The position numbers and the translations under genes are program-made. This document shows positions 23,896 to 31,518 of a stretch of DNA of 55,172 bases, piece by piece; position 1 is the stretch's first letter; the number at the start of each line of letters is the position of its first letter. The notes under the pieces are model-generated. The model made no database searches. It was not told where the DNA came from and saw nothing but the letters and a program-made list of their open reading frames with translations. The stretch covers positions 11,910 to 67,081 of the forward strand of contig JAWBQF010000014.1 in assembly GCA_038845975.1 (NCBI GenBank). Reading direction: 5' to 3'. This stretch comes from Candidatus Methanomethylicia archaeon (GTDB lineage: Archaea > Thermoproteota > Methanomethylicia > CALHIW01).

Positions 23896-25221
23896 TTAGC
23901 TAATACCTGAAACAACAACTCCATCTATAGCAATTGTTGGAGAATATATGTTTCTATATTGCTTCAAAATCTTACCAATACCCTTAACACCCTCACATAT
24001 CATCTTATTAAAGTCTCCTGATACTGTAACACCTTTTACAGGTTTTCCAATTCTTCCATTCTCTATAAGGTATGCATGAGTAACTGTTGCGTTAAGATTT
24101 CCACTTACAGGGCTTGATAGCCATTCCCCAATAGTATCTATAACGTAAAGTCCATTACCTATGATTTCCAGAATTTCTTCAAGCATTAAGTCTCCAGGTT
24201 TAAGTATGAGATTGTTTGGAGCTGGTTTTGGGGTTGAATGATAGCTTCTATGAGCATTACCTGTAGATTTCCTACCCTCCTTTTTAGCAGTATAGTTATC
24301 ATATAGGAATGTTTTAAGAATACCGTTTTCTATCAGTATGTTTCTCTCCGGCTTTATACCATCATCATCAAACTCTCTACTTCCAAATCCTCCAGTTAAT
24401 AGTCCATCATCAATTAGAGTTATGGAATCCATAGCTACTCTACTATTTAGCTTACCTACATATGGAGATCTACCTTTCTGAACTTCATCTGCTGATAGGG
24501 ATATGGAGAACATAGTATCAATAATTCTTGAAAAAACATCAGCATCAAAAACAATAGGCATTACACCTCCCTTAATTGGTTTAGCATTAATAAAATCTAG
24601 AGCTTTTACTAAGGCATCATCAACCATACGTTTAAAATCTAGTTTAAACCATGATCTAGTCTCACAGTGACTTGTTCCTGTAGCCTTCCCGTTAAGTTCT
24701 TCAGCTACAATATCAATCCATGAGTATACATAGGTATATAGTCTCTCTAAATATCCACCATAAGAATTCGTAATCCTAACACTACCACTAGAAACCTCAA
24801 TATACCCCCTACTTAAACTAGTCTTAGAGCTTGAATCCCTAACATTATCAACTATGCTTTTAATAGCATCCATGATAACATCATAGCTTATATAGGCTGT
24901 TTCACGATCATAAACATCTTTAACAAATCCTCTACTAAGACTTTCAGGTAGTGAAGACCAGCCTGGATCTTCAGGTGATGCTTTAGCTATCCTACATGCA
25001 TCCTCAACACATTTTAAAGCATCGTTAAGAGATGTTGATGAAGACATTCCCATTCTCTTACCGTAGAAAACCCTAACACCAATACCGGAGCTAAACGATG
25101 TCTTAGATGATTTTAAATAGTTACTAAACATAAACTGTTTCATAGTGTTTTCAGTAATGTATATTTCAGCTTCTGAAGCTCCTAGGCTTAATGCATGTTT
25201 TAATGCCTTATCTAAAACCAT
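23896..25221 (-). CDS. pmbA: PmbA/TldE family protein
   Basis: 'GASEAEIY', 'FDDDG', 'STGNA'; no HExxH; directly downstream of tldD. Confidence 0.88.
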   Translation of the reverse strand: MVLDKALKHALSLGASEAEIYITENTMKQFMFSNYLKSSKTSFSSGIGVRVFYGKRMGMSSSTSLNDALKCVEDACRIAKASPEDPGWSSLPESLSRGFVKDVYDRETAYISYDVIMDAIKSIVDNVRDSSSKTSLSRGYIEVSSGSVRITNSYGGYLERLYTYVYSWIDIVAEELNGKATGTSHCETRSWFKLDFKRMVDDALVKALDFINAKPIKGGVMPIVFDADVFSRIIDTMFSISLSADEVQKGRSPYVGKLNSRVAMDSITLIDDGLLTGGFGSREFDDDGIKPERNILIENGILKTFLYDNYTAKKEGRKSTGNAHRSYHSTPKPAPNNLILKPGDLMLEEILEIIGNGLYVIDTIGEWLSSPVSGNLNATVTHAYLIENGRIGKPVKGVTVSGDFNKMICEGVKGIGKILKQYRNIYSPTIAIDGVVVSGIS

Positions 25222-25222
25222 A

Positions 25223-26614
25223 CTATCGACCTCCAACAACAATACTCCTAATTCTAACATGAGGGCCTCCATGTCCAACCTTTACTGTCTGATTATCCTT
25301 ACCGCAACCTCCGAAAATACTTGTTCTAATAGAGAAGTCTTTACCAACGGCATCTATTGACTTTAACGTATCTAGAATGTATCCGCTAAGTATTACACCT
25401 CTAACCATCTCACTAACTTCACCATTCCTAATAATATAGGATGGACCTGTATTAAATGTGAATGAGCCTATACCTACATTAACCTGTCCTCCACCAGCAC
25501 CGCATCCCTTAACATATAGGCCGAAATCCACATCTTCAATAAGCTCCTCAAAACTATAATCACCCTTCTCCATGTAGTAGTTTGTCTGTCGAACTATAGG
25601 AATCTGAGAGAAGCTTTCAGCTCTAGCATTACCTGTAGGCTCAATATTAAGCTCTGCAGCTGTTTCACGTGAAGTTAGGAATCCTCTTAAAACACCCTTA
25701 TCAACAACTACAGTTTTCCTTTTAACTACTCCTTCATCATCGACGGGTACGTTGAAGCCATCAGCAATAAGACCGTCATCAACAATAGTTACATATTTAC
25801 TAGCAATATATTCACCAATCCTACCCTGAAGAACAGATTCACCTGAAGCTACTAGATCAGCTTCTGATGCATGGCCGAATGCTTCATGAAGTATTAATCC
25901 AACCAAGTCAGGATCAGCAATAATAGTGTAGACTCCGGCTTTAGGATAGCTTGAATTTGAAGCTTTTAAAGCTGTTTCCGAAATATTCTCTACAAAACCA
26001 TACCAGTCAAAACCTTTAATGAACTCATACCCCATACAGCATGATCTAGAATCCCAAACCGATTCATAGCCTAGACTTCCATGAGCTGTAGATGAATGGC
26101 CAAGACCAACAATAGTAAGCTCATTTACTATTAGTGAATTATTTGAAGATGTAAAAACTCTACAATCCCTTAAGACACCTAGCTTCGTGATAACCGTCTT
26201 AATATTATTATCAATTCTGGAATGTTTATTAACATCAATAGCTAGAGATATAAATTCATCTATTGGAGTATTGAAGGGATTGATTTTAGTAATTGTTGAG
26301 AAATATCCATGAACAGGCTTAACATCTATGAGATTAATAGGCTTACTTATAGATTTAGATGCTCTAGCTATAGATAATGCATGATCAACAATAGAATCCG
26401 TATTTTTCAACATGGTTGAAGAGGAAAAACCCCATACACCATCAACAATAACTCTTAAACCAATACCTCTAATACTCCTATACTCAACCCCTCTAAGAAC
26501 ATTATTCTCAACAGTAATAGTAAAACCATTAACAACATGACCTCTAGCCTCAGCATAGGAAGCCCCCTTACTTAAAGAGGAATTAATAAGTTTAAGTAGT
26601 AAATCATCCATCAC
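25223..26614 (-). CDS. tldD: TldD family zinc metalloprotease
   Basis: 'HEAFGHASEAD', 'DDEG', 'TGNAR', 'GCGK..Q...VG.GGPH'. Confidence 0.94.
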   Translation of the reverse strand: MMDDLLLKLINSSLSKGASYAEARGHVVNGFTITVENNVLRGVEYRSIRGIGLRVIVDGVWGFSSSTMLKNTDSIVDHALSIARASKSISKPINLIDVKPVHGYFSTITKINPFNTPIDEFISLAIDVNKHSRIDNNIKTVITKLGVLRDCRVFTSSNNSLIVNELTIVGLGHSSTAHGSLGYESVWDSRSCCMGYEFIKGFDWYGFVENISETALKASNSSYPKAGVYTIIADPDLVGLILHEAFGHASEADLVASGESVLQGRIGEYIASKYVTIVDDGLIADGFNVPVDDEGVVKRKTVVVDKGVLRGFLTSRETAAELNIEPTGNARAESFSQIPIVRQTNYYMEKGDYSFEELIEDVDFGLYVKGCGAGGGQVNVGIGSFTFNTGPSYIIRNGEVSEMVRGVILSGYILDTLKSIDAVGKDFSIRTSIFGGCGKDNQTVKVGHGGPHVRIRSIVVGGR

Positions 26615-28069
26615 AACTTAACATAATAATACTAATATTTAAGCCTTACAACATTACCTATCTACATAAACAAAGCTAAACATATAAATAAAAGCTTCAA
26701 GAGCCTATAGCTTAAATCTCAACTATACATATCTCAAAATAGAGTTAATAATCAAGGATTAGTATTAAAGACCTAAGTGATAACTCTCTAAATACCATAA
26801 AGTTATATGTTGATATTTTGAAAATTTCTAAGCTAGATATGGTAGCCTATTCTATACATTAATAGTTTTATCATATTAGATTTCAGCTTCTTTAAGGGAT
26901 ATTCCTGATTTTAAACATTAAAGTCTAGAATTAGAGGAATAGACACGTAAGCATTGGAATTAGAGTTTTACTATTACTATGATAAGTAGCTTTTAAACAT
27001 TTAAATATTTCCATGATTAACAAGACCGGTTAAGAGAATAGATCTTTACATATAGTAGCAAAATACTAGTGAATCTAGTTAAGTTTAAAGAGTCAACGGA
27101 AGTTTAGAACCGTAATATAATTGCTAGCTTACTCAATAAAATATAATTCTTTAGCTGATTAAAGCTTAATGACTATATCTTATATTTTAGTAAAACCTTC
27201 CTGAACACGTAGAGATAGTTTATAATATATTGATTTCTGAAAGCTTTATTTTGTTTCGGGATTAATGGCTTGAAAACATAGAAGTTAGTTTACAGATAGT
27301 GGATTAAATAGTTAATGGAGTTTAGGCTTTATCTTCAGGAAAACTTCTCAATATTTATTCTTTTATCCTTTAAATGCTTTATTAGGCTTCCTCCATCTCA
27401 AATTCGACGAATAGATATGCTAAATAGATATGCTATTAACATTTAAACAGCTGGCTTAAATTGAATTATTTAAGTATAGTAGTTATACATAACATCTAGG
27501 AATTTTAAATAGTTATAAGTTGAAAACTTCTTAATAGTGGTAGCTAAAATATCTTCTACTCCAGTATTTTAGCTAAACTTTTTGAAATAGCTACTTGAAG
27601 TCTTCAGCTGTCCTTTACCATATTCATGTATTACTATGTAGGAGAACTTAATGTATATTAAATAGTTTAACTCTAAATCATATTATTCCTCTACTAATTT
27701 CTACTAATGTTAGAATACTTATTATTAATACTATACTTCATCTATAATTTCATTCTCTAGACGGTTAGATTCTATAAGCTGATACTTAGCATAATTCTTC
27801 TTTCCATAGCTAATACATGTTCTAGTAAGTTTTATTGCTTTCCTAGTTAGATGTGTAGTGATGTTAATATATGCTCTAACAATGGCTGCAATAGTAGCTT
27901 CCTGTAGTAGTATGCATTGGTCTTTAATTTCTATTAGTAAGCGGACATGTTTATGGCCCAGTGGAATAAATGCTACAAACAGTTAATATCTTCATTTATA
28001 GATATATATATTAACCATAGCTATACTATATGCTAGCCTACGTAAATATTTGCATGAGAATGGTTATCT

Positions 28070-30325
28070 ATGATTAGTGTAGATGAAGCTATAAACAATG
28101 TAATTAATGAAGCGATTAGTAGTTGTGAGAGGAGACTTATAGCAGTATCCGGATCTAGTAGCTTAGATGTTGCTAGAAGAATAGTTGAATTGTATACTTC
28201 TAATAGTAGAGGTGATGTTTCAGGCTTATTGATGAGTGTTAATGCTTCTGAAACCTATAGGTCATGGCTTGAAAAACCAATAGTAAACTTTAACGCTACA
28301 GCTATTGACTATGCGAAGACGGTAGAGGTTATTGGTGGAACATGGAATATTTTAGTATTAGATGTTTCAATTCAATTTAGTCCTAGCGATATTGGTAGAT
28401 TAGTAGAGGTTGTAAGTGGGGGAGGACTAGTAATATTTACTTTACCACCTATTAGTGAATGGATTTCGAAGCCAACACTATTTCAGAAGTGGCTTATAGT
28501 ACCGCCATATAGTGAAAAAGAGCTTAGACATATATTTAAGAGAAGATTTATAAATACAGTAATCAATAGTGAGGGAACATGGCTTCTCGACTTGGAGAAG
28601 AATGAAGCTATAGGAAAGCCTAGAAATACTAAAACTGAAGTAAATGTAAAGCCTGAAGCTGAGGGTATATGTAAGCTAGCCTTAACAAGCGATCAAGTAA
28701 ACGTTATAAGGGAATGTGAGAAAGCATTTAAAGACGAGGGTAGAAAAACAGTTGTTATACTAGCTAATAGAGGTAGAGGTAAGTCTGCAGCTATTGGGCT
28801 AGCACTTGCAGATATAGTTTCAAAAGGAATAGTTAAGAGAGTAGTTATAACATCACCTGAACCTACAGGTGCTAGTACACTATATAGATTCCTTAAGAAT
28901 GGACTTAGCTTCCTAAATGTTAGATATGTTGAGGAGAAGAAGAAAATTCTAGATACTATTAGGATTGGAGATGTAAAAATCGTATATATGAGACCGGATC
29001 TAGCTTCAAGGGTTAGAGCTGATGTGAAGATTGTTGATGAAGCTGCAAGCATTCCTATACCGCTACTATACCGTATTATAGGTTCAGCTAGATTCTCAAT
29101 GTTTGCTTCAACAGTACATGGATATGAAGGGACAGGTAGAAGTTTTACTCTAAGATTTTTAAAGGGGCTTAAAGAAATTAAAAATCTTAGTGTTAAAGAG
29201 CTTACAATGACAACTCCTATAAGATATCCTGTTAATGACCCTATTGAGAAATGGCTTTACAGCTTCCTTCTACTAAACGCTGAACCACCAGAAATCAGCT
29301 TAGATACGGTTAGGAAAAGGAATACGTATTATGTTCATCTAGATATTAATAGACTATTTGAGGATGAAGAAATGTTGAAAGGATTCTATGGAATATATGT
29401 TATGGCGCATTATCGAAATAGACCTGACGATCTAGCAATACTTGCAGACGCTCCTCATCATTCTGCTAGAGCTTTAATGATGAATGGTAAAGTTATAGTA
29501 TCAATTCAGCTAGCTGAAGAAGGGGGATTAAGTGAACAGCTAATAGAAGAATATATGAAGGAAGGAGTTAAGCTTTCAGGACATATGATACCTCATAGAT
29601 TAGCAGTATACAATGGGTTAAAATCATTTCCTAAATTAAAGGGGTTAAGAATTGTAAGAATAGCAACGCATCCTAAGCTTTGGGGGGAGGGATTTGGTTC
29701 AAAAACACTTAGAGAACTTACTTTAGAAGCTGAAGCTAAAGGATACGATTGGATTGGAGCAGGATTTGGAGCTACAAGAGATCTTATAAGGTTTTGGACT
29801 AGAAACAATTTCATACCAGTACATTTAAGCCCAGTTAGAAACCCTACAACAGGTGAATTCAGCATACTTGTAGTTAAACCATTAACACGTAGAGCGCAGA
29901 AACAATTAATAGTAGCAAGTAGAGAGTTTAAATTAAGATTTCTAAACTCTCTACACAACATATACTTCGACTTAAACCCATATCTAATACTTGATGTTTT
30001 AAATATTGGATTTTCAAAACCAATATTAAGATTTACAAAAGCACAGTTAAATAGGCTTGAAGGATACGTTAAGGGAAGCTTAAGCTATGAGGCAAGTGCT
30101 GATGCAGTTCTAGAAATTACTAAAGCATACTTCATGGATGACAATATTGAAAAACCAAAAATAAACGAGGATATAAAAGCATTAATGATCGCAAAAGTAA
30201 TACAGGGTAAAAAATGGCATTTAATCAGGAAGATAATTAAGATTGATAAGCCTCTCGATAAGCTTAGAGAGGCAGTAGGGGAGCTGATTCAATACTATGG
30301 TGGGAGGAAAAGTATTAAGGTTTAA
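28070..30325 (+). CDS. tmcA: RNA cytidine N4-acetyltransferase TmcA/Nat10 (helicase + GNAT)
   Basis: 'ANRGRGKSAAIG', 'VDEAA', 'STVHGYEGTGR', 'PIRY..NDPIE', 'AHYRNRPDDL', 'RIVRIATHP'. Confidence 0.95.
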   Translation: MISVDEAINNVINEAISSCERRLIAVSGSSSLDVARRIVELYTSNSRGDVSGLLMSVNASETYRSWLEKPIVNFNATAIDYAKTVEVIGGTWNILVLDVSIQFSPSDIGRLVEVVSGGGLVIFTLPPISEWISKPTLFQKWLIVPPYSEKELRHIFKRRFINTVINSEGTWLLDLEKNEAIGKPRNTKTEVNVKPEAEGICKLALTSDQVNVIRECEKAFKDEGRKTVVILANRGRGKSAAIGLALADIVSKGIVKRVVITSPEPTGASTLYRFLKNGLSFLNVRYVEEKKKILDTIRIGDVKIVYMRPDLASRVRADVKIVDEAASIPIPLLYRIIGSARFSMFASTVHGYEGTGRSFTLRFLKGLKEIKNLSVKELTMTTPIRYPVNDPIEKWLYSFLLLNAEPPEISLDTVRKRNTYYVHLDINRLFEDEEMLKGFYGIYVMAHYRNRPDDLAILADAPHHSARALMMNGKVIVSIQLAEEGGLSEQLIEEYMKEGVKLSGHMIPHRLAVYNGLKSFPKLKGLRIVRIATHPKLWGEGFGSKTLRELTLEAEAKGYDWIGAGFGATRDLIRFWTRNNFIPVHLSPVRNPTTGEFSILVVKPLTRRAQKQLIVASREFKLRFLNSLHNIYFDLNPYLILDVLNIGFSKPILRFTKAQLNRLEGYVKGSLSYEASADAVLEITKAYFMDDNIEKPKINEDIKALMIAKVIQGKKWHLIRKIIKIDKPLDKLREAVGELIQYYGGRKSIKV

Positions 30326-30617
30326 GGGAAGGTTTAAAGAAGATATATTAAGTGGAAGAAAAACAACAACTATAAGGAAGTACTCAAAACTTAAACCTGG
30401 AGAAGTTGTTAAAATAGAGGTTGGTGGGGAGATAATTGGTAAGGCAGAGATTAAGAAAATAATAAGAAAGGAGTTTAGGGACTTAACAATAAAAGATGCC
30501 TTAAACGATGGGTTTAAATCACTACATGAATTAAAGAAAACACTATGTTTACTCTACGGTAAAATATGTGAGAATGAGAGCTTATACATAATAGAGTTTA
30601 AACTCATAAGAAACTAG
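30297..30617 (+). CDS. ASCH domain protein, YqfB-like
   Basis: 'F..RF.EDILSGRKTTTIR' (GxKxxTxR), 'DALNDGF.S..EL', 'YIIEF'; 29-nt overlap with tmcA. Confidence 0.88.
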   Translation: MVGGKVLRFKGRFKEDILSGRKTTTIRKYSKLKPGEVVKIEVGGEIIGKAEIKKIIRKEFRDLTIKDALNDGFKSLHELKKTLCLLYGKICENESLYIIEFKLIRN

Positions 30618-30895
30618 TAGTAATACGTATATGGCTCATCATCAACTTGTTTAATGATATCCTCAATATCCTCATCTAAAACTATTCTAGCTATCTTAAG
30701 AATGTTTTTTAGGGATGGATTTCTTCTAGCTTTCTGAATTATTGGTTTATGTTCTGGATGTTCATGTATAAGCATTCTAGCCATCTCCTCAAAAACCTTT
30801 CTACCCTCACTATTAAGCACATCATTTGAAAAATATCCTCTATAGTTAAGGAGGAGCTTTCTTAAGAGATTTCTCACATCAAAACCATAGCTCAC
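30614..30895 (-). CDS. Small hypothetical protein translationally coupled to translin
   Basis: 93 aa; ATGTGA-type overlap with translin stop. Confidence 0.72.
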   Translation of the reverse strand: MSYGFDVRNLLRKLLLNYRGYFSNDVLNSEGRKVFEEMARMLIHEHPEHKPIIQKARRNPSLKNILKIARIVLDEDIEDIIKQVDDEPYTYYY

Positions 30896-31518
30896 ATCTT
30901 CAACCTCTCTAAGACATTTATAAGCCGTATTCTCTTCTCCATATCTATTATGAATGCCTTAGTATCATCTACAAGTCTCCTAGCAACATCAACTTTATGT
31001 CTAACATTTGGAATAAGAGCTTCAGGATACTCTAAAGTCCTCATATACCCATATATTAGCTCCATATATTCTAAAAGCTTATAAGATTGTTCAATATCGC
31101 CTCTCCTAATGTTTTCAAGAATAATCCTCCTAATTTCACCTATAACATCCCCAATACCTTGAAGATACTGAACAACATCCACTGAAAGCTCTTCAGGCGA
31201 TGGTATGTTATTATCCCTAATTATCGTGTAGAGAAGTTTAGCTTCAACATATTCGCAAATAGCATTATTAAGTATACCACTATTTCTTAAGTCACTATGA
31301 TCTTCAATCATCTTATAAATATCCCTAATATTATCTTCAATAGTATTAATATATTTTAAGGCATCATTAAGCCTCCTTTGATGAATACTGCTTATAGCTT
31401 GACCTGACAACCTTATAATCTCACGCGACACTACAATAATTCTCTCTCTAATTCTATCTCTATCCTCTAATATCTTCTCTATTCTCCTAAATATACTGTT
31501 AAGCTTCTCCTCAATCAA
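30892..31518 (-). CDS. Translin/Trax family (C3PO-like) RNA-binding endonuclease
   Basis: 'RERII..SREI.R.S..AI...H', 'EYVEA', 'YLQGIGDVIGEIRR'. Confidence 0.9.
   Translation of the reverse strand: MIEEKLNSIFRRIEKILEDRDRIRERIIVVSREIIRLSGQAISSIHQRRLNDALKYINTIEDNIRDIYKMIEDHSDLRNSGILNNAICEYVEAKLLYTIIRDNNIPSPEELSVDVVQYLQGIGDVIGEIRRIILENIRRGDIEQSYKLLEYMELIYGYMRTLEYPEALIPNVRHKVDVARRLVDDTKAFIIDMEKRIRLINVLERLKM

Follow-up and report, generated by a model that had tools for sequence, protein, structure and literature searches.

N4-acetylcytidine (ac4C) is abundant, and reportedly growth-temperature-dependent, in hyperthermophilic archaea (cited in 10.64898/2026.02.27.708502), and several proteins of the ASCH family have been described as acting on it. 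Escherichia coli YqfB processes the ac4C nucleoside with kcat/Km values of up to 2.8e6 per M per s; its K21A, T24A, and R26A variants are dead, and activity drops 100- to 1000-fold in E74A, by more than tenfold in H70A, and by more than threefold in Y89A, with Asp27, His70, and Tyr89 being 100% conserved among its close relatives (PMC6972931). The GKTR-type archaeal proteins Afu2ASCH, Afu3ASCH, Pku2ASCH, and Pku4ASCH hydrolyze both free ac4C and ac4C in tRNA in vitro (10.64898/2026.02.27.708502). Human EOLA1, a stand-alone ASCH protein, deacetylates free ac4C for nucleotide salvage with RNA ac4C unchanged, and the same preprint states that ASCH genes of the YqfB clade form a conserved operon with TmcA/Nat10 orthologs, which it cites as support for their action on ac4C (10.64898/2026.08.01.741249). 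Here we analyze one such pair, a tmcA gene and an overlapping gene for a YqfB-type ASCH protein, found in a stretch of 55,172 nucleotides (nt) from a Candidatus Methanomethylicia archaeon (contig JAWBQF010000014.1; the whole stretch is hereafter called the window). The reading that we favor, with a probability of roughly 0.6, is that both genes form an operon whose second product is an ac4C amidohydrolase acting mainly in clean-up and salvage. The features concerned are the following.

28070..30325, plus strand: tmcA, Nat10-type RNA cytidine N4-acetyltransferase, 751 amino acids (aa), ATG start, assigned from Pfam and PDB matches

30297..30617, plus strand: YqfB-type ASCH gene, predicted N4-acetylcytidine amidohydrolase, 106 aa, ATG start, assigned from Pfam and PDB matches and a structural model

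30297..30325, plus strand: 29 nt shared by the 3' end of tmcA and the 5' end of the ASCH gene, read from the sequence

The initial annotation of this DNA had claimed a 29-nt same-strand overlap of tmcA with a 106-aa ASCH gene, the presence in the latter of residues K22, T25, R27, and D71 within quoted strings, and a likeness to YqfB. The overlap is borne out by the coordinates (28070-30325 and 30297-30617), and the residues and strings are present as claimed. The 106-aa protein matches the Pfam ASCH family PF04266 over residues 7-104 (E 8.5e-16; 59.0 bits, cut-off 21.2). K22, T25, and R27 are carried by the motif string RFKEDILSGRKTTTIR, in which the G-x-K-x-x-T-x-R motif is present as GRKTTTIR, and the protein also has DALNDGF, with D71, and ELKK...YIIEFK. 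When PDB sequences were searched with phmmer, E. coli YqfB came out on top (1te7, E 3e-5; 9kyf, E 3.5e-4), with an alignment running end to end, from ASCH residues 8-103 to YqfB residues 7-102. This alignment, together with the superposition of the model described below, confirms the likeness. It pairs K22 with K21, T25 with T24, R27 with R26, D71 with E74, and Y87 with Y89, so that the Lys/Thr/Glu triad plus Arg proposed by analogy with YqfB stands for its Lys, Thr, and Arg, the acid aligned to E74 being an Asp.

No variation is seen among 14 archaeal homologues at positions K22, T25, R27, D67, D71, G72, F73, and Y87. An AlphaFold2 model of the ASCH protein, built on 14 homologues, reached a mean predicted local distance difference test score of 93.3, and its best Foldseek matches were the YqfB entries 9kyf and 9kyh, including the complex with ac4C (template modeling score, TM, 0.83-0.87; root-mean-square deviation 1.6-2.2 Å; 30% identity). 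The remaining ASCH structures gave TM values of at most 0.73, with ZmASCH at 0.65-0.70 and human EOLA1 (5y7d) at 0.56. For this hypothetical ASCH protein, 'predicted ac4C amidohydrolase' is an apt name, and for the window alone this is routine functional annotation.

As judged from its family matches, the 751-aa chain has the architecture of TmcA/Nat10, with a predicted N-terminal domain, a helicase-type ATPase, and a GNAT acetyltransferase. Pfam returned TmcA_N (E 1e-29), the NAT10/TmcA helicase (E 5.7e-53), and GNAT_acetyltr_2 (E 3.7e-42), all above their cut-offs, and the nearest PDB relatives were Kre33/NAT10 (E 7e-65), better matches than E. coli TmcA (2zpa, E 2.5e-34). The segment R234-G-R-G-K238, within ANRGRGKSAA, does not vary among 18 aligned TmcA sequences, and we take it to be the Walker A motif. 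Family searches of the source genome revealed neither a second tmcA gene nor a second ASCH gene.

Pairing of tmcA with ASCH is more than chance and is widespread in archaea, and a survey of the adjacency, as proposed with the initial annotation, shows it to be kept in distant relatives. A scan of public species genomes provided 50 ASCH loci, in 20 of which tmcA lies directly upstream on the same strand. The labels of the metagenome-assembled genomes holding these linked loci are Bathyarchaeia, Hecatellales, Nezhaarchaeales, Methanomethylicota, Baldrarchaeota, Archaeoglobi/Ferroglobus, DHVE2, and several 'uncultured archaeon'. Six genes that flank the pair in the window, among them a translin-like gene, a 93-aa open reading frame (ORF), TldD/PmbA, and genes for proteins of 511 and 390 aa, have no homologue in the related loci. 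Thus, the tmcA-ASCH pair itself appears as the conserved unit.

Among 41 related genomes, the source genome included, an ASCH match was found in 17 and a TmcA match in 19; TmcA is present in all 17 ASCH-bearing genomes, and 22 of the 41 have neither gene. The two relatives with TmcA only are G024, where the contig ends 87 nt downstream of tmcA, and G032, a draft of 300 contigs. Both genes occur in four sampled families plus the window's own, and neither occurs in three; as relatives are not independent, this co-occurrence amounts to about eight observations and not to 41. Outside the source genome, tmcA stands directly upstream in 7 of the relatives' 21 ASCH loci, all seven being forms of about 105 aa from a single family. 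The remaining 14 show no tmcA within their 1.5-kb flanks, 13 of them coding for long forms (186-209 aa) and one for a short form. In a sample of Archaeoglobi, TmcA and at least one ASCH protein of the profile are present in 51/51 genomes, and a short ASCH gene stands behind tmcA, sharing its contig and its strand, in 33/51, as established by pairing coordinates by hand and then checking the arithmetic.

The sizes of the ASCH proteins fall into two classes. A profile search of 1.84 billion representatives returned 1688 relatives at E up to 1e-3, and the best 150 of these 1688 comprise forms of about 100-140 aa and forms of about 170-254 aa, none longer (80-254 aa overall). Long forms bear a C-terminal extension of about 90 aa, for which four examples gave no Pfam match at the gathering score and one sub-threshold winged helix-turn-helix hit. 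Compared by description, this extension resembles the tRNA-binding AAAD_HTH domain reported in the excerpts of 10.64898/2026.02.27.708502. Linkage to tmcA follows the form, since in the 50-locus scan it is found for 17 of 21 short and 3 of 28 long proteins, with locus L071 too partial to be classed. The three linked long forms (L054-L056) are labelled Baldrarchaeota in two cases and 'uncultured archaeon' in the third; in them the ASCH gene, coding for about 201-205 aa including the C-terminal extension, starts 13-15 nt after tmcA in varying frames and, unlike the short forms, without overlap. Several genomes contain both forms, which suggests a division of labor between them. In one Archaeoglobi genome, about 1.4 kb separates a long from a short ASCH gene of the same strand, both away from tmcA (G081:C196:361-657 and 2021-2329).

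A tree of the ASCH domain was built with 64 rows, leaving out four partial hits (L035, L067, L071, and L072) and five duplicates. The tmcA-linked label is strongly clustered on it, with 0 of 500 shuffles giving a value as low, and the starred branches force at least three changes of this label. The base of the tree is unresolved, and no conclusion on the ancestral form is therefore drawn.

In the window, the ASCH reading frame is +1 relative to tmcA, and the tmcA stop codon TAA (30323-30325) falls across ASCH codons F9/K10. The same +1 frame is found in 25/25 linked short loci (21 distinct after removal of duplicates), with overlaps of 14-92 nt for the start codons chosen by us. The tmcA stop lies within about codons 3-10 of the ASCH gene, usually in the CTT AAC or ATT AAC codons (L/I-N) of the conserved LNF/INF motif of the ASCH N-terminus. 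In those loci of Nezhaarchaeales and Archaeoglobi that were inspected, strings resembling GGAGG or GGGAGG occur 5-9 nt 5' of the ASCH start; the window has GGGGAG 13 nt 5' of the ASCH ATG, which is a weak case. Among the 33 Archaeoglobi pairs, the frame is +1 in 25 and +2 in four, and four are in frame. In these four in-frame pairs, tmcA has an open frame of 756-803 aa and ASCH one of 106-127 aa, and the two thus are not fused. The overlapping junction is, then, common and probably old without being universal. It is consistent with coupled translation of two separate proteins and requires no frameshift. Two ASCH profile matches contain one in-frame stop each (G043:C55:9817-10128, TGA; G080:C1:89359-89670, TAG), in both cases probably because the match extends into the overlapping end of tmcA.

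The idea put forward in the initial annotation, that an operon pairs ac4C deposition with ac4C removal or salvage, is well supported by the catalytic residues, the structure, the gene order shared across phyla, and the co-occurrence. Since the active site and fold of YqfB are retained and the gene is linked to and co-occurs with tmcA, ac4C hydrolysis is the predicted activity of the ASCH protein; from the domains, residues, fold, gene order, and co-occurrence observed, we infer this enzyme activity, the coupling of the two genes, and the substrate. In the favored reading, tmcA and ASCH would constitute a two-gene operon in which TmcA would acetylate RNA cytidines to ac4C with acetyl-CoA and ATP, and the ASCH protein would remove the N4-acetyl group of ac4C, giving cytidine and acetate. 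With YqfB as the guide, T25 would be the nucleophile, K22 the base, and D71 the acid, with R27 forming the oxyanion hole. A single transcript is likely in view of the overlap, and, because the ASCH gene starts 29 nt before tmcA ends, translation of the two genes is probably coupled, so that the level of the deacetylase would track that of the writer. The main substrate would be the ac4C nucleoside or nucleotide freed by degradation of acetylated RNA, and clean-up and cytidine salvage would be scaled to ac4C production, some action on ac4C within RNA being possible. Considering that (i) co-production of a writer and an RNA eraser would be wasteful, and (ii) the amount of ac4C arising from RNA decay scales with the writer, salvage is favored as the main role. 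Prediction of a TmcA-ASCH complex with custom alignments gave a score of 0.00 against a mark of 0.32, a result that is informative in neither direction.

A number of observations weigh against the favored reading. The acid of the ASCH protein is Asp (D71) where YqfB has Glu (E74), and YqfB H70 and D27 are replaced by D67 and K28, respectively. The NCBIfam YqfB equivalog model NF003443 scores 36.8 bits against a cut-off of 93, by which rule of NCBI the protein is a relative of YqfB and not an equivalog. It is also strongly basic, with an isoelectric point (pI) of 9.81 and a net charge of +11, compared with a pI of 4.68 and a net charge of -7 for E. coli YqfB; just 1 of 36 long ORFs of the window is as basic per residue, the window median being +0.46 per 100 aa. 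Such basicity, shared by the linked short ASCH forms as a group (median pI 9.6, n=20), is more in keeping with binding to nucleic acids than with an enzyme for nucleosides only. In the excerpts of 10.64898/2026.02.27.708502, a pI near 9 is tied to nucleic-acid binding, and mesophilic YqfB-type enzymes showed no such binding. With regard to gene order, the short ASCH lies on another contig in 18 of the 51 Archaeoglobi genomes, and in the controls Sulfolobus acidocaldarius and Haloferax volcanii the TmcA GNAT family gave a match where ASCH gave none. ASCH is thus not obligatory for TmcA, as both control genomes have TmcA without an ASCH match. Finally, the overlap is the single observation that suggests co-transcription and coupled translation.

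The ASCH protein might instead be an eraser or proofreader at the RNA level, which would strip ac4C from tRNA, rRNA, or mRNA after off-target or surplus acetylation by TmcA; we regard it as a minority possibility. The basic character of the protein, relative both to E. coli YqfB and to the window background, fits such a role. In vitro, E. coli tRNA lost its ac4C to each of the 19 ASCH proteins tested, and one of them, the short GKTR-type Afu2ASCH, removed ac4C12 from the D-stem of a eukaryotic tRNA as well (10.64898/2026.02.27.708502). The likeness of the C-terminal extension of the long paralogues to the tRNA-binding AAAD_HTH domain points the same way. However, a writer and an eraser made in fixed ratio would run a futile cycle unless their targets differ. 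Deletion of E. coli yqfB left tRNA ac4C unaltered, and Afu2ASCH does not figure among the proteins listed as tRNA-shifting in the excerpts of that preprint (10.64898/2026.02.27.708502); likewise, inactivation of EOLA1 leaves steady-state RNA ac4C unchanged (10.64898/2026.08.01.741249). A more specific proposal, which we consider doubtful, is that the short linked ASCH protein is a dedicated partner of TmcA, namely a basic RNA-directed deacetylase held at a fixed ratio by the old, mostly +1-frame junction, which would proofread or reset ac4C in RNA, while the unlinked ASCH-HTH (helix-turn-helix) paralogue of the same genomes would serve another class of substrates. If true, this would represent a hard-wired writer-eraser pair for RNA modification in archaea.

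Eukaryotic NAT10 has an adaptor-type partner in THUMPD1/Tan1, and the ASCH protein might analogously be a non-catalytic partner that binds RNA or ac4C, as an adaptor or product reader for TmcA. The ASCH fold is PUA-like, the protein is basic, and the overlapping junction suggests matched protein amounts, all of which would suit a binding role. Nevertheless, none of the YqfB catalytic positions varies within the archaeal clade, as would not be expected under selection for binding only, and the relatives that have been tested are active enzymes, which makes this role improbable. It is very improbable that the ASCH protein is an unrelated neighbor with some other role, for instance as a ribonuclease, its adjacency being irrelevant to ac4C. 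ASCH activities are indeed varied, ZmASCH being described as a ribonuclease (10.64898/2026.02.27.708502), and 30 of the 50 surveyed loci do not adjoin tmcA; yet the gene order conserved across phyla, the 17/17 co-occurrence with TmcA, and the YqfB-type motif all argue for a related role, and YqfB is the best structural match where ZmASCH reaches a TM of just 0.65-0.70.

A further alternative is that ribosomes undergo a programmed +1 frameshift close to where tmcA ends, yielding a TmcA-ASCH fusion. The recurrence of the +1 overlap (25/25 linked short loci and 25/33 Archaeoglobi pairs) and the fact that TTG or GTG are the only ASCH starts in some relatives speak for it, but the ASCH gene of the window has its own ATG, upstream of which its frame stays open for just three codons, relatives have Shine-Dalgarno-like GGAGG/GGGAGG strings ahead of their starts, and 8 of the 33 Archaeoglobi pairs use other frames. 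Moreover, the best 150 of the 1688 profile hits (80-254 aa) include no fusion, and neither do the results of a search for longer proteins, which gave four hits of 196-224 aa. In view of the separate ATG, the Shine-Dalgarno-like strings, the mixed frames, and the lack of fusions among the matches listed, a programmed frameshift was judged unlikely in the extreme.

Regarding its setting, the window is AT-rich, with a G+C content of about 29-38%, and comes from a 2.77-Mb draft genome of 76 contigs and 93% completeness that has one genus-mate among the species genomes compared; the DNA runs containing the stretch are hot-spring metagenomes, and no RNA run containing it was listed. On the downstream side, the ASCH gene meets the following feature, identified from the ORF list and Pfam/NCBIfam searches.

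30614..30895, minus strand: 93-aa ORF without a family match, meeting the ASCH stop tail to tail

A translin-family ORF (30892-31518, minus strand; Pfam E 2.4e-9), to which NCBIfam gives the name 'haloacid dehalogenase superfamily protein', overlaps this 93-aa ORF, and both are convergent with the ASCH gene. On the upstream side lies a pair of TldD/PmbA-type metallopeptidase genes (23896-26614, minus strand; 463 and 460 aa), for which the Pfam assignment is based on the 463-aa ORF. No ORF of at least 45 aa was found in the 1.45 kb 5' of tmcA (26615-28069, from tldD to tmcA). Given the convergent ORF downstream and these 1.45 kb free of ORFs upstream, the unit consists of two genes. The ORF-free segment sits in a 2-kb bin of about 29% G+C and is single-copy in the genome.

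In searches for a guide RNA near tmcA, Rfam models had no match anywhere in the window at gathering scores, and none even at E up to 1 within 26500-28150; no tRNA was found, nor was any box C/D pattern detected by a custom regular expression in the tldD-tmcA stretch. This stretch contains a 15-nt direct repeat, TAAATATTTCCATGA (27002-27016) and TAAATATTTGCATGA (28043-28057), whose copies are alike at 14 of 15 positions. The second copy ends 12 nt 5' of the tmcA ATG and holds a TATA-like string, so the repeat could be a promoter element or could have arisen by chance. A scan for promoters and terminators gave counts at the level of shuffled sequence; its consensus is bacterial and the host is archaeal, and the result was not used.

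In relation to known systems, the pairing of writer and deacetylase is already described. The initial annotation took it to be undescribed, and this does not hold, as the operon is stated in 10.64898/2026.08.01.741249. The string 'archae' is absent from the main text of that preprint, and in its excerpts the overlap and frame, the contrast of short and long forms, and counts of co-occurrence are not found; the excerpts of 10.64898/2026.02.27.708502 contain no mention of gene context (operon, adjacency, synteny, or gene cluster). Thus, as far as the excerpts of the two preprints extend, the layout of the junction, the counts by archaeal lineage, the short/long contrast, and the difference in charge are not found in either. 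What the present survey brings forward is that different archaeal phyla have a YqfB-like deacetylase gene as a companion of tmcA, with the two often overlapping, and that the ASCH proteins occur in two paralogous forms, a short one linked to tmcA and a long one with a C-terminal extension, mostly unlinked. These pairs supply concrete genes for asking whether ac4C in archaea can be reversed on RNA or is recycled only after RNA decay.

Among single proteins, the window ASCH is similar to YqfB in length (106 versus 103 aa), in its ASCH beta-barrel, and in its G-x-K-x-x-T-x-R motif, with the Lys, Thr, Arg, and Tyr kept. Their genomic settings differ, since E. coli yqfB is flanked by trhA and bglA and the 20 kb inspected there contain no tmcA, whereas the window ASCH overlaps tmcA. 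Compared by description and not by sequence, Afu2ASCH, Afu3ASCH, Pku2ASCH, and Pku4ASCH have a Thr-containing motif like that of the window protein, and, again by description, the architecture of Afu3ASCH, Pku2ASCH, and Pku4ASCH, an ASCH domain followed by a C-terminal HTH, resembles that of the surveyed forms of 170-254 aa. EOLA1 belongs to a TRIP4-like, Glu-containing (GKER) group, and is a weak structural match to the window ASCH (5y7d, TM 0.56). With the same two gene families side by side, the window pair corresponds to the operon of YqfB-clade ASCH and TmcA/Nat10 genes described in 2026 (10.64898/2026.08.01.741249), of which this locus is another instance.

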